64,000 nucleotides of DNA, taken from a virus. The notes below the pieces were generated by a model that did not search any database, was not told the DNA's origin, and saw nothing but the letters and a program-made list of their open reading frames with translations. Both the position numbers and the translations under genes were made by a program. Shown here one piece after another: positions 31,128 to 48,068 of the stretch (positions are counted from its first letter, which is position 1; each line of letters begins with the position of its first letter). The DNA lies in IMG/VR virus record IMGVR_UViG_3300033047_000016; one strand, given 5' to 3'.

Positions 31128-31143
31128 CAAGGAGATAGTTAAC

Positions 31144-32406
31144 ATGTCTAACTTTCCATTTACGGTCACAGAGACCAACATCACAATCCTGATCAACGGA
31201 GCCTTGAACAAGATTCCGCGCACACATGCCGGATTCAACGCACTGTCTGAACACCTGAAGGGGTCAAAGCACGACGCCGGATTGATCACACAACTTCTGG
31301 ACAAGCGCGCGGCAATGGCCCGTCTGACATCTGGTAAGGTGAAGGTTGTCGGCAGCACCGTGTTCTACAATGGCGCGCCTGTTCACAATGCGTTGGCGAC
31401 ACGGCTGGTGTTGATGATGGACGAGGGCTTTGACGCCGCACCGTGGGTCAATTTCATGAACAACGTCATGCAGAATCCGTCGAAAGTGTCCCGCGATTGT
31501 CTGTTTGAATTCATCATACGGTTCGATACACCGTTGACCGAAGATGGCTGCTTCGTGGCCTTCAAAGGTGTCCGCGACGACTATACCGACGTCCACAGTG
31601 GTACATTCGACAACAGCCCCGGCAAGGTAGTTAAAATGGACCGCGCCGATGTGGTGGAGGACCCCACACGGACTTGTAGTGCTGGTTTGCATGTGTGTGC
31701 ATCCCATTATCTGGACTCGTTCTGGGGCAACAAAACGGTTATCGCTGTGAAGGTCAACCCACGGGACGTGGTGTCGGTGCCGAATGACTACAACTATTCC
31801 AAGATGCGCGTATGTGAATATTTGGTTCTTGGCGATGTTGAGGACGAGCGCCACCGGGACAAGATCGAAAGCGCCCAAGTTGTTGCTTCTACGCCGGATG
31901 AAAACCGCATCGACGCCGCCAAACCAACGGCAATGGCCAACGGCTATATCGTGCCGGATGAGTGGGAACTGCATGATGAATGGCCTGAAGATGGTGACTG
32001 TGTTATCAAGCCGGGAAGCCTCGAAATTGGCACTGTCACTTATCAGGAATGTATCGACGTAACCGATGTAGATCACCCGGACAACGCTGCTTGGGACGCC
32101 GGAGATATTGCCCGCAACAGCGTAGGGGATTACTCCTTGTTTTCGGTACACTTCTATGATGGCGATGAAGTATTCGTGTCGCCAGATGGTGAAGAGTCCG
32201 TTCTTCGTGTCGTCATACCCATCGAGGAAGAAGAAGTAGCTGAGGAAACACTCACGTTTTTGCATGAGGCCACTCGGCAGGCGTTCACAGCCACACAGGT
32301 CGTCAATATCGTTGATGATATCGGGCAGCGTGGCTTCCAGCGGGAATATGATATCCCACGCACGACTGTACAAGAATGGCTGAAAGCCATCCGAGCCGCC
32401 GCGTAA
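31144..32406 (+). CDS. rIIB: rIIB-like protein
   Basis: NPS, TEDGCFVAFK.VR.DY.D.HSG, CSAGLH and VKVNPRDVVSVP.DY...KMRVCEY motifs. Confidence 0.92.
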   Translation: MSNFPFTVTETNITILINGALNKIPRTHAGFNALSEHLKGSKHDAGLITQLLDKRAAMARLTSGKVKVVGSTVFYNGAPVHNALATRLVLMMDEGFDAAPWVNFMNNVMQNPSKVSRDCLFEFIIRFDTPLTEDGCFVAFKGVRDDYTDVHSGTFDNSPGKVVKMDRADVVEDPTRTCSAGLHVCASHYLDSFWGNKTVIAVKVNPRDVVSVPNDYNYSKMRVCEYLVLGDVEDERHRDKIESAQVVASTPDENRIDAAKPTAMANGYIVPDEWELHDEWPEDGDCVIKPGSLEIGTVTYQECIDVTDVDHPDNAAWDAGDIARNSVGDYSLFSVHFYDGDEVFVSPDGEESVLRVVIPIEEEEVAEETLTFLHEATRQAFTATQVVNIVDDIGQRGFQREYDIPRTTVQEWLKAIRAAA

Positions 32407-32413
32407 CAAGATA

Positions 32414-32438
32414 GCCTCGCAGCACCATGTTGCGGGGC
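32414..32438 (+). terminator. hairpin after rIIB
   Basis: GCCTCGCAGCA-CCA-TGTTGCGGGGC; no U tract. Confidence 0.4.
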
Positions 32439-32459
32439 ACCACCATCTAGGAGAAGAAA

Positions 32460-32876
32460 ATGGGTTACTCATCCGACGGAATTTTGGTTTATGGCATCTT
32501 GCTAGAGGGCGAAGACGGTGACGTTCCTGAGTTTTTCAAGCAGGTATTAACTGAAGAAGAACTGGACGACTACGGTGTCGATATGGACAAGTACATTGAC
32601 ATCGTTTCAGACACCGAAGACGCGGAATACGCTGTTAGGAAAAAAGCTCACGATTCGTACCCAGTTGGTTTGTGTATGCACTGCTCTTACGACTATGCAA
32701 TGTACATACTGGCGGTACCAAATACCGAAGTAACCGCCAGTAGAGGTTACCCACACGGATTCAAGGATGGGTTGCCAGAGGTTTCCCCAATGGCTGTTAG
32801 CTTGTTCACTGCGTGGGCAAAAGAACACGATATTCAGGGTGAGCCTTGCTGGATTTTGTGTTCACTTGCGGGTTAA
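32460..32876 (+). CDS. acidic hypothetical protein
   Basis: AGGAG RBS. Confidence 0.7.
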   Translation: MGYSSDGILVYGILLEGEDGDVPEFFKQVLTEEELDDYGVDMDKYIDIVSDTEDAEYAVRKKAHDSYPVGLCMHCSYDYAMYILAVPNTEVTASRGYPHGFKDGLPEVSPMAVSLFTAWAKEHDIQGEPCWILCSLAG

Positions 32877-32905
32877 CACCACACGAATTATATCAGGAGA
32901 AGAAA

Positions 32906-33088
32906 ATGGACCAGTTGCGCATGACCGTCATAGTTGACGGTAAAGAAGAGACACGCCCAGTGTCACACACACAGATCAACCCAATCACACGTATGTGGGA
33001 AGATCAGCCTGTTGTGAATTACGGGGAACTAATTTCACGTGACCAAAATGGTGTGGTCACCATCATAAAAGGGGTGCACAGCCAATGA
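32906..33088 (+). CDS. hypothetical protein
   Basis: AGGAG RBS before ATG at 32906. Confidence 0.6.
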   Translation: MDQLRMTVIVDGKEETRPVSHTQINPITRMWEDQPVVNYGELISRDQNGVVTIIKGVHSQ

Positions 33089-34089
33089 GCAAATTCCAAA
33101 AACTGACAAGCATTGAATCGTTTGCCCACGTCTACCGCCACCAGCAATATTTTGACACCCCGGCTGTTGTTCAGTACGGTGCAAAGATCAAATTGCATGG
33201 GTCAAACGCGGCTGTGCGTTTGGGCGGGGACGGTACAGTGGTAGCACAATCACGTTCGCGTGACATCTTCGTTGGTGATGATAACTACGGGTTTGCTGCT
33301 TGGGTCAAGGAGAACGAGGAAGCGTGGCGCATGCCTAGCACCGACAAGCTGCGTGCGATGGTCGGAGACGTTATTTACTACGGAGAATGGGGCGGATTGG
33401 GTATCCAAAAAGGGGATGCTGTGACCAAACTTGATGCCAAGTATTTCTTCGTCTTCGCCGTGCGTACAGGTGACAATTACATCACCACACCAGCCGACAT
33501 TGAGTTGACCATCCCAGACCTCGACAACATCATCGTAATTCCGTGGGACATCATCTTTGAAGAGTCGGTTGACTTTGGTAACGCTGATGAATGTGAATCA
33601 TTCGGAGATATGTTGAACGAACGTGTGAAAGATATCGAGGAACGCGACCCATTCATTCACGGAATCTTTGGCATCGACGCACCGGGGGAGGGCTGGGTTA
33701 TCAGCCCTGTCTGCAACCCCGGAAGTGATCCGCTGGACGGACAGCTAGACGTTGATTGGTACAATCACCTGACGTTCAAGGTCAAGGTTGAGGGTCACAA
33801 CGTTAACAAAGGGCCATCGGCTGCACGCGACATCGTTGTGCCAGAGGGTGTTTCGGAGTTCGTTGAAATGTTTGTCACCGAGGCGCGGTGCCAACAGGGC
33901 CTGTCTGAGGAGCTTGGTGGAAACGCCATTCCAGAGAAGACAGGGCATTTCCTCAAATGGGTAAACACGGATATCATCAAGGAATCTGTGGAGGAACTTT
34001 CAGATGCGGGGCTTGTTTGGAAAGATGTACAGCGTGGGGTTGCTGGCGCAGCCCGGACATGGTTCTTGGAAAAATGTAAGGAGATATGA
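33085..34089 (+). CDS. Rnl2-family RNA ligase
   Basis: KIKLHGSN, DNYGFA, YGEWGG.GIQKG, GEGWV and FKVK motifs. Confidence 0.85.
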   Translation: MSKFQKLTSIESFAHVYRHQQYFDTPAVVQYGAKIKLHGSNAAVRLGGDGTVVAQSRSRDIFVGDDNYGFAAWVKENEEAWRMPSTDKLRAMVGDVIYYGEWGGLGIQKGDAVTKLDAKYFFVFAVRTGDNYITTPADIELTIPDLDNIIVIPWDIIFEESVDFGNADECESFGDMLNERVKDIEERDPFIHGIFGIDAPGEGWVISPVCNPGSDPLDGQLDVDWYNHLTFKVKVEGHNVNKGPSAARDIVVPEGVSEFVEMFVTEARCQQGLSEELGGNAIPEKTGHFLKWVNTDIIKESVEELSDAGLVWKDVQRGVAGAARTWFLEKCKEI

Positions 34090-34093
34090 AGTC

Positions 34094-34252
34094 ATGAAAA
34101 ACGAAAATAACACAAACACAGTGAATGAAGTGGTGACTAAGCCGCCGTCGCGGCAAGTTCGTCGGCAGATGCAGCGCGCCAAGGACAAGGCTGGTACACG
34201 GCACCTTAACGAGAGCGTCATGAGAAAGAATCAAAAGCGCGGAGCGCGCTGA
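34094..34252 (+). CDS. small basic protein
   Basis: SRQVRRQMQR; TGATG coupling. Confidence 0.5.
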   Translation: MKNENNTNTVNEVVTKPPSRQVRRQMQRAKDKAGTRHLNESVMRKNQKRGAR

Positions 34253-34773
34253 TGTTCGAAGTGACAGTTACCCGTGACATGGTCGGGGAGTCATTCGTAA
34301 AGGCGCAAGAAATTGGTGTGTTGCACAACTCCATAGAAAAGGGGGAGGGCAATTTAATTGGCTGCATCGGCGAGTTTGTTGTTGCGCAGGCGCTTGACGC
34401 TGACGTAGATAACACGTTTGATTACGATCTTGTTAAAGACGGAAAGACCGTTGATGTAAAGACCAAGAAGTCTGGACCGAAACCAAAAGGTAATTACGAG
34501 GCGTCGGTTGCAGACTTCAACACCGCACAAAAATGTGACTATTATTTCTTTGTGAGGGTCACTCCGCGCATGCACAAAGCGTATGTACTGGGGTTTTATC
34601 CGAAGACAGCGTTCTACGCCGACAGTAAGTTTCACACGAAGGGAGAATACGACTTCTCCAACAACTTCAAATTCCACGCCGATTGCCACAACATACGACA
34701 TGATTTGTTGCTTGGCTGGGATGCAAAAACACCGGAAGAGCTAAGAAAAGCATGGCAGCATTTGACCGCATAA
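34252..34773 (+). CDS. PD-(D/E)XK-like nuclease
   Basis: GCIGE...DYDL.....VDVKTK. Confidence 0.6.
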   Translation: MFEVTVTRDMVGESFVKAQEIGVLHNSIEKGEGNLIGCIGEFVVAQALDADVDNTFDYDLVKDGKTVDVKTKKSGPKPKGNYEASVADFNTAQKCDYYFFVRVTPRMHKAYVLGFYPKTAFYADSKFHTKGEYDFSNNFKFHADCHNIRHDLLLGWDAKTPEELRKAWQHLTA

Positions 34774-37646
34774 ACGGTGAATTCACCACACGATTTGCAG
34801 ATGGACGATCAGGGTGTAAAAAGCCGGATCGTTTCATGTTTAAAAGGAATGGATGGTCGTGGGACGTCAATACGAAGGGGTGGACCACACCAGACATTGA
34901 GAACGCACGTCCACTCATAAAGCACGCGGTCGGTGCCGCCAAAGAGCATCTGGTAGTGGCTGAGCGCGTGCGCGAGGCTATTGTAGCGGAATCTTGGGCC
35001 GAGGATACCGAAACAATCTTTCCGGCCCCTGACGGGGAGCATTACCTACCCTTTCAAAAGGCTGGGATAGAGTACGCCATAAAACGCAAACACACTCTGA
35101 TCGCTGACCCACCCGGTCTAGGTAAATCGCAACCAGTAGATGAGCCTGTGTTGACCCCGAATGGGTGGACAACCATGGGAGAGTTGCGTGTTGGGGATTT
35201 TGTGGTTGGGGTGGACGGGAGAAAAACCAAAGTAGTTGGAGTTTTTCCGCAAGGTATTTTAGATACATATCAGGTAAAGTTTTCTGACGGTGCGTCCACT
35301 TTCTGTAGCAATTCACACTTATGGGCTGTGGCAGATTCCAATAGACGTAAACGCACAAACGATTTTACTGTAAAACCTCTATCTGAAATATCTGATCGTG
35401 GATTGAAAGAAGGTACACGCAAAAAGTGGACTGTACCGGTTATGGGTCCTGTGGAATTTCCCGAGAGAAAGTTTGTGATACCCCCATATACATTGGGGGT
35501 GCTGCTGGGTGATGGGAGTTTACATCAATCCAGCCCATGTGTGTCAATCGCAAATTTTGAGTCAGAAATAAAAGATAGACTGGAAGCAGAGATTCTGCCG
35601 GGATACCGACTACACAGCGCCCGAAAAGCAGATAAAACTAATCGCTGTAAGCAGTATACAATAAGTCGCCCACGCTGTGGCTCATCTCCATCAACATATA
35701 TGACCGAATTACGGCGATTAAATCTGGCAGTTAAGGGTGATAAAAAAAGAATTCCAGCGGAATATTTAACAGCCTCAGCAGAACAACGGCTTGAGCTTTT
35801 GCGGGGTCTCATGGATTCTGATGGAAGTGCACGCCAAAACAGAATAACGTTCCATTCGTGCAATCCTTATCTGGCGGCGGACGTACAGCAGCTTGTGTGG
35901 TCTTTAGGAGGCATTGCCAGTGAGCGTACCTACGTGCGACACGATGGAAAGTCCGATGAAACGAGAATCAACGTAACGCTCGACACATGCCCGTTTCACT
36001 TGACTAGAAAAGCCACCGAATGGTCCCCAAATCGCAGGCACCACCGTGTCCGAAGGTTTATTGACTCTATTACCAAGGTAGGGAAGAGTCCTCACGTATG
36101 TATTTCTGTAGCTGCGGCTGACAACTTATACGTCACTAGAGATTATGTTGTGACACACAATACAATTCAGGCAATCGGAGTGCACAATGCAACAAAAGCC
36201 AAACGTGTTTTAGTGGTGTGCCCAGCGTCATTGAAAGTGAACTGGAAGCGGGAATGGGAAAAATGGGATGTGCATGGCCTTTCCGTAGGCATTGCACACT
36301 CAAAAACCAGAACAAAAACAGTAAAAGAAATAGTCGAAGGCGTGGAAGAAAAGTGGGTAAAGCGCTGGACTGAGCACGTGTGGCCTGACACAGATGTTGT
36401 GATGATAAATTACGACATGCTGGATGCGTTTAACGACGCCGTAAAAGATGTGTCGTGGGACTTGCTGATTTGTGATGAGGCGCATCTTTTAAAAACAAAG
36501 ACGGCACTGCGCACATTATGTGTGTTCGGCGGGGCACGAAAGGGTGCCAGAAAAAATGGAATACAAACCAGAAAGCCAAAGACCTATACTGCAATTGAAG
36601 CAACCAAGACACTGTTTCTGACCGGAACACCTATTCTATCCAAGCCGGTTGAGCTATGGAACCTTATTAGAATCTGTGATCGTCCCGGTCTCGGTAAGAA
36701 CTATGATGATTTTGTCTTCGACTTCTGCGGTGCATATTATGAAGGTGACCATTTAAATGTTATGGGAGCATCCAATTCCGACGAATTGAATCGGCTGATG
36801 CGTGAGAGATTTATGGTACGCAGAGACAAGCGCTCTGTATTAAAAGAATTGCCAGACAAGACTCGCGAATTGATAATGTTGCCGCAGGATAAATTAGAGA
36901 AGCCAGTTAAAAAAGAACTGTCTCGAATGGAATCTGCGCTGAATGTGTACGAAAGTATAATTGGAATAAGCGAAGAAGACCGGTCATTCCGATACATAAA
37001 GGCCATTGAATCTCTCACAGACAAGCTTGCAAAAGCACTCGAAGAACAAGACAGCGAAACTCCTAATTGGGATTTAGCTGTAAAGACAATGGAAGAACCT
37101 GATCAAATTTTGTTCACAGAAATAAGTCTGGCACGAGAAGAAGTTGCAATTGCAAAAGTTGGAATGGTGGTAGAACACATCAAGAAGCTGGTAGATTCCG
37201 AGGAGCCAGTGATTTGTTTTGCGTATCACAAGTCTGTGATATCGACAATAAAAGAACGCTTGGAGAAGGTAGGCATAAGCGTTGGTGTGGTCACAGGATC
37301 AGTGGCATCAAACAAGCGGCAGCAGGTCGTTGACGACTTTCAATCAGGTTCGTACGATGTGATCCTTGGAAACATAATCGCCATGGGTGTTGGCTTCACG
37401 CTAACGCGTGCCAGTTTCGTTGTGTTCGCTGAGTTGGATTGGGTGCCAGCACTCATCGAACAGGCTGAAGACAGGGCGTGGCGGTACGGCCAACTTAATG
37501 CTGTACTTGTCCAGCATCTTGTGGTAGATGGGTCCATCGAAGCACGGATGGCGATTGCGCTGTTGGACAAAATGGGAGTAATACATGACACACTGGATTA
37601 TCGCGATACCCCTTATCCTTATGACGACGATGTCAGCGATGGCTGA
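34752..37646 (+). CDS. SNF2/SF2 helicase containing an intein
   Basis: LIADPPGLGK|T, VCPAS, DEAH, LTGTP, GVGFTL and QAEDRAWRYGQ motifs. Confidence 0.93.
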   Translation: MAAFDRINGEFTTRFADGRSGCKKPDRFMFKRNGWSWDVNTKGWTTPDIENARPLIKHAVGAAKEHLVVAERVREAIVAESWAEDTETIFPAPDGEHYLPFQKAGIEYAIKRKHTLIADPPGLGKSQPVDEPVLTPNGWTTMGELRVGDFVVGVDGRKTKVVGVFPQGILDTYQVKFSDGASTFCSNSHLWAVADSNRRKRTNDFTVKPLSEISDRGLKEGTRKKWTVPVMGPVEFPERKFVIPPYTLGVLLGDGSLHQSSPCVSIANFESEIKDRLEAEILPGYRLHSARKADKTNRCKQYTISRPRCGSSPSTYMTELRRLNLAVKGDKKRIPAEYLTASAEQRLELLRGLMDSDGSARQNRITFHSCNPYLAADVQQLVWSLGGIASERTYVRHDGKSDETRINVTLDTCPFHLTRKATEWSPNRRHHRVRRFIDSITKVGKSPHVCISVAAADNLYVTRDYVVTHNTIQAIGVHNATKAKRVLVVCPASLKVNWKREWEKWDVHGLSVGIAHSKTRTKTVKEIVEGVEEKWVKRWTEHVWPDTDVVMINYDMLDAFNDAVKDVSWDLLICDEAHLLKTKTALRTLCVFGGARKGARKNGIQTRKPKTYTAIEATKTLFLTGTPILSKPVELWNLIRICDRPGLGKNYDDFVFDFCGAYYEGDHLNVMGASNSDELNRLMRERFMVRRDKRSVLKELPDKTRELIMLPQDKLEKPVKKELSRMESALNVYESIIGISEEDRSFRYIKAIESLTDKLAKALEEQDSETPNWDLAVKTMEEPDQILFTEISLAREEVAIAKVGMVVEHIKKLVDSEEPVICFAYHKSVISTIKERLEKVGISVGVVTGSVASNKRQQVVDDFQSGSYDVILGNIIAMGVGFTLTRASFVVFAELDWVPALIEQAEDRAWRYGQLNAVLVQHLVVDGSIEARMAIALLDKMGVIHDTLDYRDTPYPYDDDVSDG
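35127..36161 (+). mobile_element. intein with LAGLIDADG endonuclease (345 aa) in the helicase Walker A
   Basis: SQPVDEPVLTPNGW...HLW...LGVLLGDG...LRGLMDSDGS...VCISV...VTHN|T. Confidence 0.92.
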
Positions 37647-37941
37647 GACTCCGTGTCGAACGAATCACCGAGGTCAAGCCGTCTGTAAAGACGCCGCTGG
37701 TGACCAGTGGACCCAGCGAAAAGACCATCGAGACAGGACCATTTGGGTCAATCAAAGAACACATGAACGGGTTCGCGAGCGGGTGAACAACAACCGTGGC
37801 GTGGACTTCATCGCATCCAATGGCGCAACCGTTGGACGCACCACTAAGCGATCCGGGAATCGGACCCGCATTGAATCCAGCGGGGGTATTCTCGTGTGCC
37901 GACCTGATCCTAAAAGGCTCATACGCTGTCATAAAGAGTAA
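37585..37941 (+). CDS. putative exported basic protein
   Basis: Signal-peptide-like N-terminus; GGGAG RBS. Confidence 0.6.
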   Translation: MTHWIIAIPLILMTTMSAMAETPCRTNHRGQAVCKDAAGDQWTQRKDHRDRTIWVNQRTHERVRERVNNNRGVDFIASNGATVGRTTKRSGNRTRIESSGGILVCRPDPKRLIRCHKE

Positions 37942-37948
37942 TTACCTG

Positions 37949-37977
37949 TTGACACGTTGTAAAACACCTAGTACAAA
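37949..37977 (+). promoter_or_regulatory. sigma70-like promoter for the HD / PvuII-like / Pol A operon
   Basis: TTGACA-N17-TACAAA. Confidence 0.65.
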
Positions 37978-38002
37978 GCTATCACACAAATAAGGAAAAA
38001 GC

Positions 38003-38617
38003 ATGGAAAGCCCATGGATTTTAACGGCATCAGGCCGTAAGTACCACTATTTGAATAACGACCCGACTGAATTTCACGTACCAGACATGGCAGCATCGCT
38101 GTCGAGAATATGTCGGTACAACGGGCACCTGTCAGATCAATACGACGACGACATTTACAGCGTGGCACAACACAGTGTGTATGTGTACTGGCTGTTGGTG
38201 AAGGTCGGTGCCCCAAAGCGCGCACTGCCGTGGGCCATTGCTCATGATATGCCAGAAGCCTATTGGACTGATGTGCCAAGCCCTCTCAAATCCATTCTGC
38301 CGGAATACAAGCGCTTGGAGCACGGCGCTGGGGAGCTTATGCGCCACTATCTAGGCATTCCGCACGACGACGAAATTGAACGTGTTGTCAAGTGGGCTGA
38401 TATGCAGATTCTCTATGCCGAAAGTCAGGAGATAACCAGCATCCCATCGGAACTGTGGGATACTGGAATGAAAGCCGATTACACGCTACAGGAGATTGAC
38501 GAAAACTTCTGCCTGTGGCGTCCGAGATTGGCAAGGAAAATGTTCATGCAGGAGTACGACAAAGCAATGCAACACGCACACAAATCAGGAGGGCTGCAGT
38601 ATGCCAACGCATCTTAA
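38003..38617 (+). CDS. HD-domain 5'-deoxynucleotidase (YfbR/YfdR-like)
   Basis: LSRICRYNGH, YSVAQHS, HDMPEAY..D.PSPLK and K.AD motifs. Confidence 0.88.
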   Translation: MESPWILTASGRKYHYLNNDPTEFHVPDMAASLSRICRYNGHLSDQYDDDIYSVAQHSVYVYWLLVKVGAPKRALPWAIAHDMPEAYWTDVPSPLKSILPEYKRLEHGAGELMRHYLGIPHDDEIERVVKWADMQILYAESQEITSIPSELWDTGMKADYTLQEIDENFCLWRPRLARKMFMQEYDKAMQHAHKSGGLQYANAS

Positions 38618-39134
38618 TATGCGCTACGCGGAGATTGAATCTCTGTGGCCCGGAATCCAAGCATTCCAAGCCCTCGCCGACCAATACGGCGTGCCGGATA
38701 TTTTTGCTGACAACGGCGGAAAGGTTGTTCAACTTGCCGTTGCAACAGGTCTCGATATTGTGCCCGGACGAATGGGAGCAGACTACGCCGACCGCATGGG
38801 AAATGAATACGAGGTCAAGACGGTAAACACCGCCAAGAACGTTCGGGGTTTCACTACCAATCACCATCTAACCAAGAAGACGATTGGTAATTACCGCACG
38901 CGTCGGTGGGTGTTTGCAATGTACGACAACATCACGCTGGATGAAGCATACCTTGTAGAGTCAATAGAAATGGAATCAATTTTCATGAAGTGGGAGTTGG
39001 CACTTGGGGGAAAGAGGGACCACCTCAACAATCCAAAAATCCCCATTGACTTCGTCCGCCAAGTTGGTACGGTCATGTATATGAAAGACGTGGCCCCGGC
39101 ATGGATTTCTGGTAAGAAAATGGCGGTGGCGTGA
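38601..39134 (+). CDS. PvuII-family restriction endonuclease
   Basis: Colinear with R.PvuII: LWP.IQ, DIF.DNGGK, PGR.G.D..D..G.EYE.K, GF.T.HH, NNPKIP. Confidence 0.9.
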   Translation: MPTHLNMRYAEIESLWPGIQAFQALADQYGVPDIFADNGGKVVQLAVATGLDIVPGRMGADYADRMGNEYEVKTVNTAKNVRGFTTNHHLTKKTIGNYRTRRWVFAMYDNITLDEAYLVESIEMESIFMKWELALGGKRDHLNNPKIPIDFVRQVGTVMYMKDVAPAWISGKKMAVA

Positions 39135-39433
39135 CACACACTAAATTTCTTGAAGCAATGGTCCTCGTCACGCTATTCTGCGTGGTGGGGGCGACAACGG
39201 CCTACGGAGAAGATGTAGACTTCTTCTGCAACAGTGCTACCGCCGCCGAGGCATCTGTGGACCCAGAAATACGAAAGCAACTAATTGAGACCACTACCTG
39301 TGGCTATTTTACACAGAGATATGGTTTCATGTCTAAAGGCACGCTGACACACGTAAAAGATGTTGACGGGACAGACAAGTCAGTCTATTTTGTTGACTAT
39401 GGAAATGGCACCTACACATACACGGTAAAATAA
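39131..39433 (+). CDS. putative exported protein
   Basis: Signal-peptide-like N-terminus. Confidence 0.6.
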   Translation: MTHTKFLEAMVLVTLFCVVGATTAYGEDVDFFCNSATAAEASVDPEIRKQLIETTTCGYFTQRYGFMSKGTLTHVKDVDGTDKSVYFVDYGNGTYTYTVK

Positions 39434-41670
39434 TGCAATCAGCATTCGATCACATAATCTTCGACATTGAAACGAACGGGCTGCTCCCGGCGCACATTGA
39501 CCCGCCGTTCTGCATGGACCGTATTCATTGCCTGTCTATAAAAGACATAGAAACCGGAGAGCATCGCAGTTATGTGAACGACGATTTATTTCCTCTGAAT
39601 TCTCTGGTCCTTGATGCCCTGCGTGAGTTGGGCCACAATTACGTGCGTCCATTGTCTGAAGGTATTGAGTTATTGTCGAATGCCGTGACCTTGATCGGTC
39701 ACAACATAATTGACTTTGATCTACCAGCAATTGAAATGATCTATCCAGACTTTCAAACGGACGCGCGCATAATCGACACACTGGTTATGGTGCGCATGTG
39801 CTTTGCTGACATCAAAGAAAAAGACTTCAGGATGGCTGCACGTGGCACACTTGAGGGTAAGTTCATTGGTACGCAGGGTTTGGAAGCTTGGGGACAGCGG
39901 CTTGGTTTGGCCAAAGGCGATTACAAAAAAGATCGCGAATTAGAATTGAAGGCGCTACACAAAGAGCGCAGCCTAGAGCCGCCCACAAAAGAAGAACTGC
40001 ACCACTATGTGTGGGGCACGTGGAATGTGCCAATGCACGATTACATGGTTCTCGACGTGGACGTCAACGACAAATTGTGGATCAAGATTGACGAAACCAA
40101 TTGGTCGCGCGAGTCGATGCGTCTTGAGCACGAAATTCACGCACTTATGGTGCAGCAGGAACGCAACGGGTTCTTCTTTGATGAAGTCCGCGCACGCAAG
40201 CTTGGAGACAAGTTGCAGGCCGAATATGATATTTTTGCAGGCGAAGCAACCGACGAGATTGGACGCTGGTTCCGCCCATCACGTTGGCATTCTCAAGAAG
40301 AGGATGGCTCTGGAATTGATTTAGATCGCGGCGAGAATAAAAAACGCCGTTCGTGGGGCAACATCGACGTACCAAAGCGCACGATAAGCTACTCCAAATC
40401 GAATGCAAAACTAGATGGCGACTATCGAAAGATGCGCGCCAGTACTGTAAAAGACGTGCCATTCGTACGTGTGGAACTGCGCGACTTTAACCCCAATAGT
40501 CGCCAGCAGATTGTTGATCGGCTGTCACATCTTTATGGGTGGACACCGCAGGACTTCACCGAGAAAGGTAGCCCCAGAGTTGACGATGAGATTCTGCGTA
40601 ACTTAGTAGACGAGATACCGCTGGCAAGGGTGCTCGCTGAGTTGTTCTACTACAAAAAGCGTATAGGGATGGTTGTAGACGGAAAGAACGGCTGGTTGAA
40701 GCTCCTACGAAGCGACGGGCGTATTCATGGGCGAGTTAACGTCGGTGGCACTGTCACCGGTCGCGCTACGCACTCACGTCCAAATATCTCTCAGGTACCC
40801 GCCGTAAAAGTATTGGAGACGAAGGATTACAACAAGGGCCTAGATTGGATTGTCGAGCACAAGGATGCTGGGACATTCGTGGACGCCAGTTGGAGCGAGA
40901 AAAAGGGTGAATGGGCTATCTATGTTCGTGGGCGTAAAGGCGACCACGGGTGGGATTGCCGTGAGTTATTTACTGTTCCGGTTGGATATAAATTAGTTGG
41001 TTGTGACCTGTCCGGCATTGAATTCCGATGCCTTGCAAATCTGACATTCCAGTTCGATGATGGTGAACTTGTTGATATCGTTCTCAACGGGGATATCCAC
41101 CAGAGGAATGCAGACAGCGCCGGTATTTCGCGGTCCATCGCCAAGCGTCTTTTGTACGCAGCCATGTATGGAGGTGGGGACGGCAAGTTAGGATCAATCG
41201 TTGAGCCACTAGCTTCTGAAGGACGCCAGCGTTCACTAGGAAAGCAGTTGCGTGCCAAACTTATGGCAGCTATGCCGTCCTTGAACAAAGCGATCAAGGA
41301 GATTCATAAAGAAGCGCGTAAGAACGGCAACACTATTGCGGGCCTCGACGGACGCCGCCTTTATATTAGGGCCAAGCACGCCGCCTTGAATATGCGGTTG
41401 CAGTCAGATGGGGCTTTGATCGCCAAGAAATGGTGTCTCATGGTTGACGACGCCTTCTATGCGGAAGGCTGGGATCACGGCGTAGGTAAGGAATACGCGT
41501 TCTGTAGCTGGTCTCACGACGAGATTCAAATCTCAGTGCGTGAAGACTTGGCAGAACGCGCCGCCGAGATTATGGAACAGATGGCACCTGAAGCTGGCAA
41601 GTACTTCGGGTTCAACTGCCCTGTGGCGGCGGAGTCGAATATAGGTATGACGTGGGCTGAAACTCACTAA
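39433..41670 (+). CDS. polA: T7-type family A DNA polymerase with 3'-5' exonuclease
   Basis: FDIETNGL, GHNIIDFD, FNPNSR, TGRATHSRPN, DLSGIEFR, AKRLLYA.MYG and HDE motifs. Confidence 0.96.
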   Translation: MQSAFDHIIFDIETNGLLPAHIDPPFCMDRIHCLSIKDIETGEHRSYVNDDLFPLNSLVLDALRELGHNYVRPLSEGIELLSNAVTLIGHNIIDFDLPAIEMIYPDFQTDARIIDTLVMVRMCFADIKEKDFRMAARGTLEGKFIGTQGLEAWGQRLGLAKGDYKKDRELELKALHKERSLEPPTKEELHHYVWGTWNVPMHDYMVLDVDVNDKLWIKIDETNWSRESMRLEHEIHALMVQQERNGFFFDEVRARKLGDKLQAEYDIFAGEATDEIGRWFRPSRWHSQEEDGSGIDLDRGENKKRRSWGNIDVPKRTISYSKSNAKLDGDYRKMRASTVKDVPFVRVELRDFNPNSRQQIVDRLSHLYGWTPQDFTEKGSPRVDDEILRNLVDEIPLARVLAELFYYKKRIGMVVDGKNGWLKLLRSDGRIHGRVNVGGTVTGRATHSRPNISQVPAVKVLETKDYNKGLDWIVEHKDAGTFVDASWSEKKGEWAIYVRGRKGDHGWDCRELFTVPVGYKLVGCDLSGIEFRCLANLTFQFDDGELVDIVLNGDIHQRNADSAGISRSIAKRLLYAAMYGGGDGKLGSIVEPLASEGRQRSLGKQLRAKLMAAMPSLNKAIKEIHKEARKNGNTIAGLDGRRLYIRAKHAALNMRLQSDGALIAKKWCLMVDDAFYAEGWDHGVGKEYAFCSWSHDEIQISVREDLAERAAEIMEQMAPEAGKYFGFNCPVAAESNIGMTWAETH

Positions 41671-41678
41671 AATAACTC

Positions 41679-41729
41679 TTGACAAGGATTGAAGCTCTGA
41701 TATAAGGGCACTACTAAGGAAACGAATCA
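41679..41729 (+). promoter_or_regulatory. sigma70-like promoter with CGAATCA at the start codon
   Basis: TTGACA-N16-TATAAG; AAGGA-AA-CGAATC-ATG. Confidence 0.6.
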
Positions 41730-42346
41730 TGAACGTACTATTTTTTGACACAGAAACAACCGGGCTTACGAAGCCAAAGTTGGATCACTGCCACCCAGAC
41801 CAGCCAATGCCTGTTCAGTTAGGTATGAAGTTGGATGCTGCAAACCGTGCGGAAATGGGTGCCGTTAACTTCATGATCAAAACTCATGGACAATGGAAAG
41901 TAGACCCTAAAGCTGCGGAAATCACTGGCATCACAAATGCTCTGGCTGACGAGTTTGGGACTGAGCTTATTTCTGCATACGAGGTGTGGCTCGATTACGT
42001 CGCCACAGCCGATATCTTGGTTGCGCACAATGCCGCGTTCGATATTGTAGTAATGCGTCACGCAGGAAAAGTGTATGCGGACGAAACCGGCACCGAATAC
42101 CGCGATCCGTTTGAAGGGAAGAAAGTTATCTGCACGATGCTTGCCAGCATTGATCTGATCAAGGCCACGCCAAAGAGGCGCAGGCAGTGGAAGTGGCCAA
42201 AACTGGAAGAGTGTACACAGAAGCTGTTTGGGTACAAATCTGACGGAGCACACGATGCGCTAGTGGACGTCAGAGACACAGCCAGAGTATTTTATTACCT
42301 CATGGATACGGGAGTATTCGAACGTGAGCAATCTAAAACTAAATGA
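41729..42346 (+). CDS. DnaQ-like DEDDh exonuclease
   Basis: FDTETTG, AHNAAFD, CTM, WPKLEE and AHDALVD motifs. Confidence 0.9.
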   Translation: MNVLFFDTETTGLTKPKLDHCHPDQPMPVQLGMKLDAANRAEMGAVNFMIKTHGQWKVDPKAAEITGITNALADEFGTELISAYEVWLDYVATADILVAHNAAFDIVVMRHAGKVYADETGTEYRDPFEGKKVICTMLASIDLIKATPKRRRQWKWPKLEECTQKLFGYKSDGAHDALVDVRDTARVFYYLMDTGVFEREQSKTK

Positions 42347-42358
42347 AGGTATTGTCCA

Positions 42359-43498
42359 GTGACTAAGACATATTTTGATGAACTGATCGCCAATGGTGTG
42401 CCGGATTCAATCCCACAAGATGGTTTTGCGTTCGAAGACCTTTACGACGAACACATTGCCAACAACCAAAAGACGTGGAAACAAGATCGTCGGTTGACAG
42501 TCGGTGCGTCTGAGTGCTTTGGGTGTATCCGTAAGACGTGGTTCACCAAGCGCGGACACGAGTTCGGCGTCAAGACAGACCCGGATCACGAAGACAATTG
42601 GGGTGCTATGGAACGTGGCAACATGATAGAAAACCACTTCATTGTCCCGGCAATGGAGAGTGGTCTGCGCCGACGTGGTATGGACTTGATCATGGCAGGA
42701 GACGGACAAGACACCATCATTGATGGCATCCATTCCGCGACACTTGACGGACTCGTTATCGACGCCCCTTCCGATGTTTTGGCATTCTACGATGTGCCTG
42801 ACATTAAGTCCGATTGTTTCAATCTTGAAATGAAATCGTTTGACCCGCGCCTGACGCTGGAACACGAAAAGCCGGTTCACCGTGGGCAGGTGCAAATGCA
42901 GATGGGATTGGTTCGTGACACCACGGACTACAAGCCAGAGTTCTCGGCTCTGATGTACATCAACGCATCTTGGTTGACAGACATGCGCTTGTTCCCTATT
43001 CCGTACGACGACGCGGTTTACAATATTGGGCGCGCCCGCAACGAAAAGGTTTTTGCAGAAGACACAGCCAACGCGTTTGCCACAGAAGGCAAGCTGGATG
43101 GCCTATGCAAGTACTGCAATTATCAGGACGCCTGCAACGAAATAACGCGGGAGCGGGTACCTTCAGCAAGAAAAGCGTTGAACAAGCAAGAAATCAGCGA
43201 ACAGGACCAGAAATTCATTGACAGCCTTACGCCCCTTGTGTTACAACGAAATACCCTCAGTAAAGTTGGTAAAGAAACAAAGGTCGCCCTTGAGGAAATC
43301 AACGAGCAAATCAGGCAAGCGTTGATCGCCAAGGGAGAAAGTCGCGTAGTTGGCGGAGATTGGAAAGTCACATACACATCACAGGCTGGACGAAAAACCC
43401 TGTCGAAAGCATTAATGATTGCTGACGGCGTTGACCCCGATAGATATATGCAGGAAGGCGGCAGCTTTGAAAAGCTGACTGTTACGGCAGTACAATGA
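42359..43498 (+). CDS. Cas4/RecB-like PD-(D/E)XK exonuclease
   Basis: C.RK, ATLDG, LEMKS, QVQMQM and CKYC.Y...C motifs. Confidence 0.8.
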   Translation: MTKTYFDELIANGVPDSIPQDGFAFEDLYDEHIANNQKTWKQDRRLTVGASECFGCIRKTWFTKRGHEFGVKTDPDHEDNWGAMERGNMIENHFIVPAMESGLRRRGMDLIMAGDGQDTIIDGIHSATLDGLVIDAPSDVLAFYDVPDIKSDCFNLEMKSFDPRLTLEHEKPVHRGQVQMQMGLVRDTTDYKPEFSALMYINASWLTDMRLFPIPYDDAVYNIGRARNEKVFAEDTANAFATEGKLDGLCKYCNYQDACNEITRERVPSARKALNKQEISEQDQKFIDSLTPLVLQRNTLSKVGKETKVALEEINEQIRQALIAKGESRVVGGDWKVTYTSQAGRKTLSKALMIADGVDPDRYMQEGGSFEKLTVTAVQ

Positions 43499-43770
43499 AC
43501 GCAAAAGAACAAACATACATCGACACTATCTTTGCCAAGGCAACAGTGTCAATGCAAAAGGCCAAGAAAAAATTCCCCCAGCCAAATTATGTCGCGCTAA
43601 AAGTGGCAGAAGAAGCTGGTGAAGTTGTCCGTGCGGCAGTACATTACGCCGAGGATCGCCTAACTTGGGAAGAGCTTGAGGGTGAGGTGGTCCAAACCAT
43701 CGCCATGCTCTTGCGCTTACTGACTGAGGGTGATCAGGTCAATGGGGTGATCCCACCACATCTTAAATAG
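43495..43770 (+). CDS. MazG-like NTP pyrophosphatase
   Basis: EEAGEV...E.EVVQ.IAM. Confidence 0.7.
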   Translation: MNAKEQTYIDTIFAKATVSMQKAKKKFPQPNYVALKVAEEAGEVVRAAVHYAEDRLTWEELEGEVVQTIAMLLRLLTEGDQVNGVIPPHLK

Positions 43771-43869
43771 AATTCCGCATGAGCGGATTGTCGTCACACT
43801 TGTCGGTGGGTGTGTCGGGTTAATTTAAGCACCGTCAAACAAGAGACCAAAAAACAAGGAAACCATACG

Positions 43870-44676
43870 ATGAGTAATTCACTGGTAGATCAGTCTGCAC
43901 AGAACGCAGTAATGAACCACGAAGGCGCTGACCCGTTCAGCGCAGGCGCGGAAGCCGGAATGTCCACCTACGTTAAGTTTCGTGGGGCCAGCGGCGAGTA
44001 TCTCGCAGGTTCGGACGAAGACGAAATCGCCCACGGTACTAAGTTCATCGCGAACATCTTTGAAGCGCGTTGGATTTGGTCGTTCTGGTGGGATGGCAAG
44101 GTGATGGGAACGGTTGATGAACTCCTTCGGGAACAACCGTTGCTGAATAAGCACATGCCAGACTTCTTGCCGGATGATCCTGAAGGCGACATTGATATGA
44201 CGCTGGACGAAATCCGCAAGATGCAGAAGGAAGACCCGGCTAATTTCCGGGACGGGTGGAGCATCCAAGCTTCGTTCGAAATGCTGTCCATGGACGGCAA
44301 CGACGAGGAATACACCATGCGCTTGGGTGGAGGAGTCAGCATTCGCGGCTTTGATGCACTGCGTAAGGCGTTTGGTCGTCGTTACAAGATCGAGGCCGGT
44401 AAAGACCCGGTTATCGAACTGACGACTAACAAGTACAAGTCGAAAGTGAAGGGTGTTGGTACTCGCCACGCCCCTGTGATGAAGATTGTTGACTGGCTGT
44501 CGCCGGAAGACATGATGGCCGCGACTGGCGAAAATGATGCAGACTATGATGATGATGTGGCGGACGCTCCGGCACAAGAGTCAGAAAAGGTAGCGGATAC
44601 GCCAGCAACGGAGAAAAGTGAGGCCCCCACAGGCCGCGCCGGACGCCGGGGTGCGCGCACCAAGAATCTTGGTTGA
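43870..44676 (+). CDS. probable single-stranded DNA-binding protein
   Basis: Replication-cluster position; YVKF..G.Y, PVIEL..Y, P.MKIVDW; acidic tail. Confidence 0.65.
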   Translation: MSNSLVDQSAQNAVMNHEGADPFSAGAEAGMSTYVKFRGASGEYLAGSDEDEIAHGTKFIANIFEARWIWSFWWDGKVMGTVDELLREQPLLNKHMPDFLPDDPEGDIDMTLDEIRKMQKEDPANFRDGWSIQASFEMLSMDGNDEEYTMRLGGGVSIRGFDALRKAFGRRYKIEAGKDPVIELTTNKYKSKVKGVGTRHAPVMKIVDWLSPEDMMAATGENDADYDDDVADAPAQESEKVADTPATEKSEAPTGRAGRRGARTKNLG

Positions 44677-44729
44677 CACGTAGATTCTAATGAAATAAGG
44701 TAAGCCCATCCCGACATGGGCTTACCTTA
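44673..44729 (+). promoter_or_regulatory. promoter overlapped by a 14-bp perfect inverted repeat
   Basis: TTGACA-N17-TAAGGT; TAAGGTAAGCCCAT-CCCGAC-ATGGGCTTACCTTA at 44696-44729. Confidence 0.65.
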
Positions 44730-44751
44730 ATCACATCACAAGGAGATAACT

Positions 44752-45066
44752 ATGTTTATTACACCAAAGACCGTGGCCCAAGCAATCGCGCCATTTGAGA
44801 AGATCAAGACCAACTTGAAGATTGTTCTGGATGCACAGCGTGCACGGAAGGCTAGTGCGGAAAGTCGTATCAAGACCGCCCGCGCAACCGTTAAGCAGGT
44901 CGAGAACACCGAGAATGCAACAATCAAGTCCGCCGTGGAAGAAGAACTCCGCGCCGCAGCCTTGATCGCAAATCTCGAAAAGTTGTTCAGTGCTGACGCT
45001 CCCGTCAATGTTGATGCCATGTCGCCATCCAAAAAGGCCGACGCCGGACACAAACTGGAAAGCTAA
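44752..45066 (+). CDS. coiled-coil hypothetical protein
   Basis: AAGGAG RBS. Confidence 0.7.
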   Translation: MFITPKTVAQAIAPFEKIKTNLKIVLDAQRARKASAESRIKTARATVKQVENTENATIKSAVEEELRAAALIANLEKLFSADAPVNVDAMSPSKKADAGHKLES

Positions 45067-45070
45067 GCAA

Positions 45071-46462
45071 ATGGGCATTACGCTTACAGATCATCAGTGG
45101 GCCGCTGTGAAGCGGGCCGCTGATTGGTATGAGAATGCCAGTCAGCACTACGAACCGAGTTATGATCGGTTCTTCGGAGACACAACAGAAGATAGTTCAG
45201 TCGTTGGCCAGTCTTTTGTGTTCGCAGGATATGCCGGATCGGGTAAATCAACCTGTGTTGGCACAATGATCGACCACCTGAAATTGACCGAAGAACAGGT
45301 CATGTACATGGCACCGACAGGCAAGGCGGCGAAAGTCTTGACCGGTAAGCTGCGTGCTGATGGGTGGAACCAACCGGCTACGACAATCCACAAAGCTATT
45401 TATATGCCGCGTGGAGCCAAGGCTGACGTTATCCAAAAGGATTTGGAAGCAGCAGAAATGGCACTCGAAACGCGCCGTGACGCCGACAGTGATGCTGACG
45501 ACAGATTCGAGGCTATGTCAGATCGAGAGCTTGAAGTGCGTGTGGCAGAACTTGAAAATGCACTGCGTGAAGCAATGGATTCTGAGGGACCATCATTCGC
45601 CCTCAAGCGCCCAGAGGATATACCTCCGGGAATCAAGCTATTCGTTGTTGATGAAGCGTCAATGGTAGGCACAGAAGTGGCCAACGATCTTCTACGATTC
45701 AACGTCCCTGTGCTGGCTATCGGCGACCCCGGACAGTTGCCGCCCGTGGCAGACGAGTGGGGTTTTGCCATGGAAGAACCAGACGTTTTCCTGACAGAAA
45801 TTCATCGGCAAGCTGCTGACAATCCGATAATTCGGCTGGCGACGCTGGCGCGAAAGGGTGAGTTGTTGCGCCCCGGTGACTACGGTGATGGTGTGAAGGT
45901 CGTGAAGAGGCAAGACGACGACGTTACCCTAAACATGGATCGTGATGCCATGATACTTGTTGGCACACACAAAAAGCGGTGGATGATCACCAAGAAAATT
46001 CGGGCGGCTTTAGGTATCACTGCCACCGGCCCGATGGCTGGTGAACCAATCTTGGTGAACAAGAACTCTCGCCAATTCCCATCACTGGTAAACGGTACCA
46101 TCCTCATGAACACGACTGATCACGGAGACTTGATCGGCGGAAACACTCGTATTAAACTGGACCTTTTGGACCCAGAGGCGGAGAACCTTCCGTACGGATT
46201 GTGGGGCGCGCAGTGCTTCTTTGAAGAGCACTTGTTCCGCAAGCGCAACAGCTATAGTGGGTCACCACAAGAAGTGTTTCGCGCTAAGGTATCGTGTGAG
46301 CAAATGGATTGGGGCCACGTGCTGACGGTCCACAAGTCGCAGGGATCGGAATGGGACGACGTTGTCGTGCACGACGAAAGTGGTGTGTTCAGGGATCAAG
46401 GGGCGCGGTGGCTGTATACTGGAATCACGCGTGCGGCAAAGCAGCTAACGGTGGTGATATGA
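45071..46462 (+). CDS. SF1B RecD/Dda-like helicase
   Basis: GYAGSGKST, APTGKAA, VDEASM, GDPGQLPPV, HKSQGSE and YTGITRA motifs. Confidence 0.93.
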   Translation: MGITLTDHQWAAVKRAADWYENASQHYEPSYDRFFGDTTEDSSVVGQSFVFAGYAGSGKSTCVGTMIDHLKLTEEQVMYMAPTGKAAKVLTGKLRADGWNQPATTIHKAIYMPRGAKADVIQKDLEAAEMALETRRDADSDADDRFEAMSDRELEVRVAELENALREAMDSEGPSFALKRPEDIPPGIKLFVVDEASMVGTEVANDLLRFNVPVLAIGDPGQLPPVADEWGFAMEEPDVFLTEIHRQAADNPIIRLATLARKGELLRPGDYGDGVKVVKRQDDDVTLNMDRDAMILVGTHKKRWMITKKIRAALGITATGPMAGEPILVNKNSRQFPSLVNGTILMNTTDHGDLIGGNTRIKLDLLDPEAENLPYGLWGAQCFFEEHLFRKRNSYSGSPQEVFRAKVSCEQMDWGHVLTVHKSQGSEWDDVVVHDESGVFRDQGARWLYTGITRAAKQLTVVI

Positions 46463-46662
46463 TACAAGAAGAAGACGTTGAATATATTCGCAAGAATACA
46501 GACATGCTGGGAACGGTATTAAGTGTTGACTCCGATGATTTGGCTGTATACATTCAAGACCTAAGTGAACTGGTACTGAAAATGGCCGCACAAATTAAAG
46601 AACAGCAAGCGAAACTAACATCGCTTGAGAACCGCCTATGGATGGCAATGAACGAAGGTTAA
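46459..46662 (+). CDS. hypothetical coiled-coil protein
   Basis: ATGA overlap with previous gene. Confidence 0.6.
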   Translation: MIQEEDVEYIRKNTDMLGTVLSVDSDDLAVYIQDLSELVLKMAAQIKEQQAKLTSLENRLWMAMNEG

Positions 46663-46664
46663 CT

Positions 46665-47348
46665 ATGACGACACCTATTGTAGTGGCATTCACTGGGAAG
46701 CGCGGTTCTGGTAAATCCGAAGCGGCGCGAGTTCTGGTAGAGAAACTTGGTTTCCGTGAACTTAAATTTGCGGACCAATTGAAGAACATGCTTCGCGCCA
46801 TGTACCAGACATGTGGCGTTGATGTTAACACGGTCGAACGCAAGATCGAGGGCGACCTAAAAGAGGTTCCGTGTGAATGGCTTATGGGGAAGACTCCACG
46901 CTATGCCATGCAAACACTTGGCACTGAATGGCGCAACATGATCAACACACAGTTGTGGTCAGAAATGTTCAGGAAGGCTGTTCTGTCTGGTAATCTTGGA
47001 GACAGGATCGTTTGTTCTGATTATCGCTTCGAGCACGAAGGGGTGATTCTAGATGAGCTTGGTGCCGTCAAATATCGCATCGTTCGCCCGACCGCTGACG
47101 CGGTCTCAGATAAAGCATCACAGCACGCATCTGAAACGGAGCTTGATAATATCCCTACAGACTTCGACATCATAAATGACAGAAGTATCGGTGATCTACA
47201 AGTATCCGTGCTGGAACTAGTCATGGATGGAATGAAAATTAGTGGTATCAATGTGTTTCCAACACGTTACCCAGAGGGTGGGTGCATGTCCAAACCACTA
47301 GACGAAGACTGGTTTAAACACAATCATCAAACAGTTCGGATAGACTGA
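46665..47348 (+). CDS. deoxynucleoside monophosphate kinase
   Basis: GKRGSGKS, FADQLK, PRYAMQTLGTEW, DYRF..E and HASE motifs. Confidence 0.92.
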   Translation: MTTPIVVAFTGKRGSGKSEAARVLVEKLGFRELKFADQLKNMLRAMYQTCGVDVNTVERKIEGDLKEVPCEWLMGKTPRYAMQTLGTEWRNMINTQLWSEMFRKAVLSGNLGDRIVCSDYRFEHEGVILDELGAVKYRIVRPTADAVSDKASQHASETELDNIPTDFDIINDRSIGDLQVSVLELVMDGMKISGINVFPTRYPEGGCMSKPLDEDWFKHNHQTVRID

Positions 47349-47824: not shown

Positions 47825-48068
47825 TGCGGAATTCAGCATAGCCGGAGAGCTTAGAGAGTGGCGTAAGCACGTATGCCGGTCTGATGGAACATACGTGCTA
47901 TGGGGCTTCATTTACGACGACGTTCGTAACAGATTTCCAGATGGTCAGTGGGTGCACACCTCCCGCATTGATAATATTGTTGGGGACTTGGCCTACACAT
48001 TTACTGGATCGGTCTACCGATTGGTCGGAGATAAGGCAGGAGAGGACGTTAACATATGGGCATCCTGA
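47817..48068 (+). CDS. conserved small phage protein
   Basis: WG.IY.D...RF.DG...HTS...T.S.YRL. Confidence 0.7.
   Translation: MNDAEFSIAGELREWRKHVCRSDGTYVLWGFIYDDVRNRFPDGQWVHTSRIDNIVGDLAYTFTGSVYRLVGDKAGEDVNIWAS

Follow-up and report, generated by a model that had tools for sequence, protein, structure and literature searches.

A solitary PvuII-family restriction endonuclease gene in roseophages whose genomes lack CAGCTG and many other restriction sites

Introduction

A stretch of 64,000 nucleotides of viral DNA, IMG/VR record IMGVR_UViG_3300033047_000016 (the whole of which is hereafter called the window), contains at positions 38601 to 39134 a gene for a PvuII-family restriction endonuclease and lacks every SAGCTS site, that is, CAGCTG, CAGCTC, GAGCTG and GAGCTC. 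The original prediction, which was made from the DNA letters only, joined these two features and proposed that the phage had adopted a nuclease relaxed to SAGCTS and that its genome protects itself by lacking the site. Phage restriction-site avoidance and solitary bacterial restriction endonucleases are already known separately; a clade-wide solitary enzyme residing in site-free phage genomes appears to be undescribed in the literature searched, and the papers on the roseophages DSS3phi8 and MD18 contain no mention of restriction, PvuII or methylation. Here, we describe the nuclease locus, its phage relatives and the site content of carriers and non-carriers, and we weigh the explanations that could connect them.

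Results

The nuclease gene and its immediate neighbours

The nuclease gene lies between genes for a nucleotide-handling enzyme and a DNA polymerase:

38003..38617, plus strand: gene for an HD-domain deoxyribonucleoside 5'-monophosphate (dNMP) phosphatase (PHROG 318, E 3e-47; weak Pfam YfbR-like match, E 0.005)
38587..38592, plus strand: Shine-Dalgarno sequence AGGAGG, 8 nucleotides 5' of the nuclease ATG, as read in the sequence
38601..39134, plus strand: solitary PvuII-family Type II restriction endonuclease gene (177 amino acids; matches to PF09225 and to PvuII in the PDB)
39131..39433, plus strand: open reading frame (ORF) of 100 amino acids with a hydrophobic N-terminus, overlapping the nuclease stop by 4 nucleotides and abutting the polymerase gene
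39433..41670, plus strand: gene for a T7-like family A DNA polymerase (Pol I), 64-67% identical to DSS3phi8-like Pol I (PF00476 in relatives)

The ATG at 38601 was favoured as the start over an upstream TTG at 38496 on account of the AGGAGG and of the homologues, all of which begin with MPTHLN. The 177-residue product matches the Pfam family Endonuc-PvuII (PF09225) over profile positions 6-155 of 155 (E 3e-39; 134.9 bits against a cut-off of 25) and the solved PvuII chains (PDB 1pvi/1eyu) over residues 9-157 (E 8e-37), which confirms the end-to-end alignment with R.PvuII that had been read from the sequence. In the alignment with PvuII, D61/E71/K73 of the phage protein correspond to the catalytic D58/E68/K70 (PD-(D/E)XK), D37 corresponds to D34, H88/H89 to H84/H85, and N143/N144 to N140/N141, so that the catalytic residues and the equivalents of D34, H84 and N140/N141 are kept, as had been claimed. 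Residues D34, H84, H85, N140 and N141 of PvuII reportedly take part in base reading in the PvuII-DNA structure of 1994. The role of His84 in PvuII is also cited in PMC4705667. The alignment also places the phage sequence GFTTNHH opposite GFSTHHH of PvuII; this difference is real, but it is not the peculiarity of the phage enzyme for which it had been taken, because 90 of the 96 phage homologues, like most bacterial members (GFSTNHH), have asparagine at the position of PvuII His83. Asparagine is thus near the family consensus and PvuII is the exception. Some GenBank records already name a PvuII-type restriction enzyme as its product; the PHROGs label for the family is 'unknown function'. As far as sequence comparison can tell, the gene is that of a genuine, selectively maintained PvuII-family nuclease, and the specificity of the enzyme would most likely be the canonical CAGCTG.

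The nuclease start and the 3' end of the HD gene, whose counterparts in relatives are annotated as HD superfamily hydrolases, share 17 nucleotides. Together with the 4-nucleotide overlap at the nuclease stop and the abutting Pol I gene, this supports the view that the HD phosphatase, nuclease, small ORF and Pol I genes form a translationally coupled block, in agreement with the apparent operon with an HD deoxynucleotidase and Pol A that had been proposed. The 100-residue ORF at 39131..39433 has no Pfam or PHROG match, and several relatives also have a small ORF at this position. In relatives, a gene further downstream is annotated as an exonuclease.

Phage clade and nuclease homologues

By its Pol I and nuclease, the window groups with the DSS3phi8-like roseophages of about 147 kb (64-69% amino acid identity), of which DSS3P8, vB_RpoS-V10, MD18 (MT270409), RcXuper, DSS3_MAL1 (MN602268; hereafter MAL1) and RpAliso were compared. 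At the nucleotide level, megablast against a phage collection gave no match to the window. The nuclease lies between the HD and Pol I genes in five of these six relatives, RpAliso being the exception, and this location is fixed in all relatives that carry the gene. A database search yielded 96 phage-clade homologues (protein clusters) of 52-85% identity, many of them on contigs of 50-147 kb. Of these, 95-96 conserve each of the catalytic and base-reading residues, which show no variation in an alignment of 42 sequences; the ratio of nonsynonymous to synonymous substitution rates (dN/dS) of the nuclease is 0.03-0.11. The bacterial PvuII family comprises at least 5009 clusters, none of which exceeds 48% identity to the phage clade, and its members, where examined, are paired with a PF01555 methylase. 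Because 96 homologues are conserved at low dN/dS and the bacterial kin are paired with PF01555, the phage gene is, by these comparisons, an old, selectively maintained and solitary member of the family that is found clade-wide. A scan of IMG/VR with a single Pol I protein gave no hits, and an alignment-based Pol I scan revealed no further relatives that are clearly without the nuclease.

Restriction sites missing from the window

CAGCTG, CAGCTC, GAGCTG and GAGCTC each occur 0 times in the window, where first-order, third-order and fourth-order Markov models predict about 51, 38 and 20 SAGCTS sites, respectively; the depletion is therefore real when measured against expectation. The combined count of CAGCTA, CAGCTT, GAGCTA and GAGCTT is 55, and AAGCTG, AAGCTC and TAGCTG occur 26, 15 and 11 times, which bears out the manual scan behind the original prediction, where SAGCTS was found purged, about 50 SAGCTW sites were kept, and AAGCTG, TAGCTG and AAGCTC were common. 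The avoidance is synonymous: among 91 Glu-Leu dipeptides in long ORFs, 0 are encoded as GAG-CTG or GAG-CTC, so the codon pair GAG-CTG is missing as had been noticed. SAGCTS is also absent (0 sites) from a further 20.5 kb of the same phage, located on a 144,372-bp scaffold with an identical nuclease.

SAGCTS is one of about 20 purged words; in total, the window lacks 43 hexamers, almost every one a restriction-type palindrome or degenerate palindrome. The absent words include the following:

1..64000, no strand: SAGCTS, CCWGG, RGATCY, GRGCYC, CGATCG, CGGCCG, CTCGAG, GCCGGC, GGCGCC, CCCGGG, CCGCGG, GTCGAC, ATCGAT, ATGCAT, AGGCCT, TCCGGA, GCTAGC, CCTAGG and GATGAC

The last of these is non-palindromic: GATGAC/GTCATC occurs 0 times against 40 expected in the window and is also absent from L049, L004/L150 and L349 (L numbers are our handles for loci in the clade), and its frequency is normal in most relatives. 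This loss may be the trace left by a Type IIS, Type III or Type I system that only a few lineages have encountered.

Two classes of nuclease carriers

CAGCTG is missing from all carriers, in sequences of up to 150 kb, except for G108 (IMGVR_UViG_3300028844_004840), a complete genome with an intact-looking nuclease, which has one, together with one each of CGGCCG, CTCGAG and GGCGCC. The four cultured carriers examined genome-wide, DSS3P8, MAL1, RcXuper and MD18, are thus devoid of CAGCTG; they retain 113-237 CAGCTC/GAGCTG sites, at or above expectation. GAGCTC is absent in three of the four, travelling with GRGCYC, and MD18 has regained both. CAGCTG is not special among the avoided palindromes of the clade: GCCGGC, CGATCG, CGGCCG, CAGCTG, CTCGAG and GGCGCC are equally absent or near-absent across 10 of 10 clade genomes.

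A second group of carriers, which we call S-class, is free of CAGCTC, as opposed to the C-class genomes in which it is retained. The S-class consists of the window and most uncultured relatives, including L048-L056, L139, L141 and L004 (pooled, 4 CAGCTC against 168 expected). The Pol I tree implies at least three origins of the S-state: one for the main S clade, one for L139 and L141 together, and one for L004, which is nested beside MD18 and MAL1. No column of the nuclease alignment separates the two classes, and the base-reading residues do not vary between them. The positions that correlate best with class, 124 (M/L), 38 (N/A), 36, 42 and 43, mirror the phylogeny and do not hold for L004 and L066; at several of them, the S-type residue is also found in PvuII. 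L004/L150 combine a C-type (MAL1-type) nuclease with 0 CAGCTC in 25 kb; the idea that L004 is a recombinant with a foreign nuclease was ruled out, since its Pol I, too, falls within the C clade. With 113-237 CAGCTC/GAGCTG sites in cultured carriers, invariant base-reading residues and the discordance of L004, the relaxed SAGCTS specificity that had been proposed for the enzyme is not borne out.

In a scan of all hexamers, only CAGCTC and CTGCAG (PstI) combined depletion in the S-class with a normal frequency in the C-class; for CTGCAG, the pooled observed and expected counts are 20/176 in the S-class versus 1148/520 in the C-class. The reverse scan, for words depleted in the C-class and normal in the S-class, returned TGGCCA and GAGCCC. 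The two classes therefore differ at several unrelated restriction sites, a signature of different host restriction repertoires. That the GAGCTC loss is a mere part of GRGCYC avoidance was ruled out in most S-class loci, where GAGCCC is present. Non-palindromic words of Type IIS-like appearance have also been lost in particular lineages: CTCCTC is near zero in DSS3P8, MAL1 and RcXuper, CTGAAG occurs 2 times against 81 expected in RpAliso, and CTCCAG 2 times against 84 expected in DSS3P8.

The purge in phages without the nuclease

In RpAliso, which is 72% identical in nucleotide sequence to its nearest relatives, nothing separates the HD gene from Pol I, and the genome as a whole is without a PF09225 gene. 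CAGCTG nevertheless occurs 0 times against 43.5 expected, with 1096 precursors that are one mutation away from the site, and neutral regain in this genome is estimated at about 365 CAGCTG sites per substitution per site. The absence of CAGCTG from RpAliso thus implies either that the gene was lost very late, in roughly the final 0.008 substitutions per site of a branch of at least 0.14, or that selection has continued without the gene. The pace of regain can be gauged from MD18 and MAL1, which are 82% identical: MD18 has regained 13-42 sites per relaxed palindrome for GRGCYC, CCCGGG and GGGCCC, all of which are wholly missing in MAL1.

A PF09225 gene was not found in five roseophages of other families by the same search that detects the gene in carriers. 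The N4-like phages DSS3phi2 (FJ591093), which infects R. pomeroyi DSS-3, and EE36phi1 (FJ591094), which infects Sulfitobacter, have observed/expected counts of 0/52 and 0/49, respectively, for CAGCTG, for CAGCTC plus GAGCTG, and for GAGCTC alike; CTGCAG occurs 0 and 2 times, and AAGCTG is abundant (131/44 and 118/43). In these two genomes, 27 and 23 of about 51-54 testable six-base palindromes are wholly absent, a purge that is among the deepest we have met and is unmentioned in the literature searched. They are also without CCWGG, GRGCYC-type and GGGCAC words. The Naomviridae phages DSS3_VP1 and DSS3_PM1 show 3- to 20-fold depletion of the CAGCTG, CAGCTC/GAGCTG and GAGCTC words, and SIO1 is rich in CAGCTG (74/33) and depleted of CAGCTC (7/29) and GAGCTC (2/25).

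Purging of restriction sites is therefore general in roseophages and independent of the nuclease gene. The full SAGCTS purge in the gene-free N4-like phages means that the nuclease is not its cause, and the original attribution of the purge to the enzyme falls with the equal purge in DSS3phi2 and EE36phi1 and the 0 CAGCTG of RpAliso.

Methyltransferases

No methyltransferase was detected in the window: tblastn searches with three methyltransferase types were empty, and the [DNS]PP[YFW] motif occurs once, in Pol I. Neither a PF01555 methylase nor a controller protein adjoins the nuclease, whose neighbours are the HD phosphatase and Pol I, and the earlier statement that the window has no methyltransferase or controller gene was correct. 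Beyond the window, the whole genomes of DSS3P8, MAL1, RcXuper, MD18 and G108 contain no PF01555 (M.PvuII-type) gene. A predicted DNA methylase of another kind, marked by an NPPW motif, is present:

L349, 10001-10573 (same 144-kb scaffold as the window's nuclease): small S-adenosylmethionine (SAM) methyltransferase P0281 with an NPPW motif
RcXuper, 9794-10435: NPPW-motif protein annotated 'DNA methylase', 55% identical to P0281

P0281 matches PHROG 799 'DNA methyltransferase' (E 7e-31) and is situated about 67 kb from the nuclease on the 144,372-bp scaffold. The NPPW protein resides in an accessory region, where a tRNA cluster is found in cultured relatives, and is kept in all cultured relatives, including RpAliso, and in G108. 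It has no Pfam or NCBIfam match and more than 6000 homologues, among them chromosomal 'class I SAM-dependent methyltransferase' proteins of Rhodobacterales. A search outside the window thus yielded a candidate methylase that belongs to a family other than PF01555, is unlinked to the nuclease and has zero CAGCTG to protect; a cognate PvuII-type methylase was not among the findings in the five related genomes. The presence or absence of the NPPW methylase was ruled out as the cause of the split between S- and C-class, since the window's own scaffold has a homologue, and a difference in its specificity may lie behind the split. G108, the most divergent member of the clade, additionally encodes a C5-cytosine methyltransferase (22058-22942; PF00145, E 3e-47) and is the only lineage that tolerates CCWGG and RGATCY; in G108, methylation may be replacing avoidance.

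Other features of the region

Upstream of the block lies a further gene, whose Pfam domains were read on an identical product and on relatives:

34752..37646, plus strand: SNF2-family helicase with an intein-like LAGLIDADG insert (964 amino acids; SNF2-rel_dom, LAGLIDADG_3 and Helicase_C)

Relatives encode this helicase either without interruption, at 612-627 amino acids, or with the insert. Some relatives also have large inserts in Pol I (961-991 amino acids in L049 and L054). The sole CTGCAG of the window is at 38594-38599, in the short interval that separates the Shine-Dalgarno sequence of the nuclease gene from its ATG.

Discussion

We favour, with reasonable although limited confidence, the reading that the window encodes a canonical solitary nuclease that is kept in a CAGCTG-free genome and that the purge results from host restriction-modification (R-M) systems and not from the nuclease. 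R-M systems of Roseobacter-group hosts would have imposed a broad synonymous purge of sites, CAGCTG among them, and a CAGCTG-free genome would allow the clade to keep the nuclease without its cognate methylase. The additional loss of CAGCTC/GAGCTG in the window phage and its uncultured relatives would reflect exposure to a host system specific for SAGCTS. A canonical enzyme cannot cut a genome that is without CAGCTG, and no cognate methylase is needed because the genomes contain no such site; in this respect, the proposal of self-protection through site absence stands, while its other half, the purge as the footprint of the nuclease, does not. The probable target of the enzyme is DNA of the host or of competitors: early in infection, unmethylated CAGCTG in the host's own or in co-infecting DNA may be cleaved, after which the fragments may be recycled by the neighbouring exonuclease and dNMP-handling enzymes, or rival elements may be excluded. 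Nucleotide recycling would fit the setting of the gene next to those for a dNMP phosphatase, Pol I and, in relatives, a downstream exonuclease.

Several points weigh against this explanation. None of the Roseobacter genomes here yielded a host system for SAGCTS or CAGCTG. DSS3phi8 and DSS3phi2 both plate on the same laboratory host, R. pomeroyi DSS-3, yet the former has abundant CAGCTC and the latter none, and the selective pressure must therefore come from other natural hosts. The purged SAGCTS is a superset of the nuclease's own site, which has to be taken as a coincidence, the chance of which we put very roughly at 0.1-0.2, as a guess based on the number of known specificities. Hosts that methylate CAGCTG would resist the phage enzyme, and if such hosts are met, the host-degradation role would be narrowed. 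G108 has one CAGCTG despite its intact-looking nuclease, so either a single site is tolerated or the G108 enzyme differs. Finally, the activity and specificity ascribed to the nuclease follow from its conserved residues and should be read as predictions.

The competing explanations differ in the part that they give to the nuclease. A canonical phage enzyme could itself be the main agent that excludes CAGCTG, leaving host systems to account for the rest, CAGCTC among them. Each infection cycle would bring renewed selection by a self-encoded enzyme, all carriers have 0 CAGCTG (1 in G108) in up to 150 kb, and MD18 still has 0 CAGCTG despite relaxing several other sites; nevertheless, we regard this explanation as rather unlikely. 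CAGCTG behaves like five other universally absent palindromes for which there is no phage nuclease, one CAGCTG is tolerated by G108, the gene-free DSS3phi2 and EE36phi1 have none, and the neutral absence of CAGCTG from RpAliso, with 0 of 43.5 expected sites and 1096 precursors, requires a very recent gene loss. That the protein has ceased to be a site-specific restriction enzyme and is now a repurposed DNA-binding, nicking or recombination factor, or a hitch-hiking selfish gene, is an unlikely alternative in our estimation, even though the gene is embedded in a replication operon, RpAliso is viable without it, PHROGs assigns no function to the family and some solitary bacterial restriction endonucleases are inactive without a methylase (PMC3488263). 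The catalytic triad and the sequence-reading residues are conserved in 95-96 of 96 diverged homologues at dN/dS of 0.03-0.11, the pattern expected for retained cleavage and CAGCTG reading.

The relaxed enzyme of the original prediction, whose genome would have shed SAGCTS to escape it, has several attractions: SAGCTS is a coherent degenerate target (most S-class loci have GAGCCC and yet are without GAGCTC and CAGCTC), it includes the CAGCTG of the family, nuclease positions 124 M/L, 38 N/A, 36, 42 and 43 correlate with class, and a natural N4-methylcytosine (m4C) system for SAGCTS exists, so that the specificity is biochemically possible, m4C being also the modification of the PvuII system. 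We consider it very unlikely all the same. The residues that read bases directly are all invariant between the classes, the correlated positions track phylogeny and carry S-type residues in PvuII at several places, L004/L150 have a C-type nuclease with CAGCTC 0 in 25 kb, and gene-free N4-like roseophages show the identical full purge; moreover, CTGCAG loss co-varies with CAGCTC loss and is beyond the reach of a SAGCTS enzyme. We see only a slim chance for a variant in which an offensive nuclease drifted to SAGCTS within the SAGCTS-free subclade, a drift that a site-free genome would permit, and in which such phage nucleases, in addition to host systems, help to purge SAGCTS from co-occurring unrelated roseophages through conflict during co-infection.

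Among known systems, R.PvuII of Proteus vulgaris (Type IIP, CAGCTG; 1PVI) resembles the phage protein in fold family, D/E/K residues, minor-groove Asp, His-His and Asn-Asn; the phage gene differs in lacking an adjacent PF01555 m4C methylase or controller, in lying within a replication operon and in having Asn for His83. In bacterial PvuII-family R-M loci such as that of Thiothrix subterranea, the homologous nuclease gene lies divergently next to a PF01555 N4/N6 methylase gene, whereas the phage gene is solitary. Chloroviruses encode Type II restriction enzymes that degrade host DNA, and their own DNA is shielded by the cognate methylase. The offensive use proposed here is the same, but protection of the phage would come from complete site absence instead of a methylase. 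Solitary restriction endonucleases in prokaryotic chromosomes (Ershova et al. 2012, PMC3488263) have mostly been put down to a methylase encoded far away or to a lack of activity; they are likewise without an adjacent methylase, and here the carrier is a lytic-type phage clade without the target site. Site avoidance as known in phages (Rusinov et al. 2018, PMC6286503) involves the same synonymous loss of palindromic Type II sites and fully accounts for the SAGCTS observation, although the roseophage purge is unusually large, with 16-27 six-base palindromes wholly absent per genome in addition to degenerate and non-palindromic words. The documented natural Type II m4C motif SAGCTS of M.Ble402III/M.Ble401III of Beggiatoa leptomitoformis is exactly the purged word, and its source is an unrelated gammaproteobacterium; for this Beggiatoa system, no PvuII-family nuclease was found among the best 80 genome loci or among 120 of at least 5009 homologues, and a search of the order Thiotrichales returned Thiothrix instead.

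If the enzyme is active, the clade as a whole would carry a phage Type II restriction nuclease without a methylase that is safe only through the absence of its target site, and this would represent a simple viral route from a host defence enzyme to a weapon for host-DNA breakdown or competitor exclusion. DSS3phi8 and R. pomeroyi are culturable, and the idea of a solitary nuclease is therefore directly testable. The regain of sites in MD18 relative to MAL1 provides an internal clock for the return of purged sites once selection stops. Roseophages of at least four families exhibit very deep and partly shared purges, the degenerate SAGCTS included, and these purges point to a rich, largely uncharted R-M landscape in the Roseobacter group that can be read from sequence alone.

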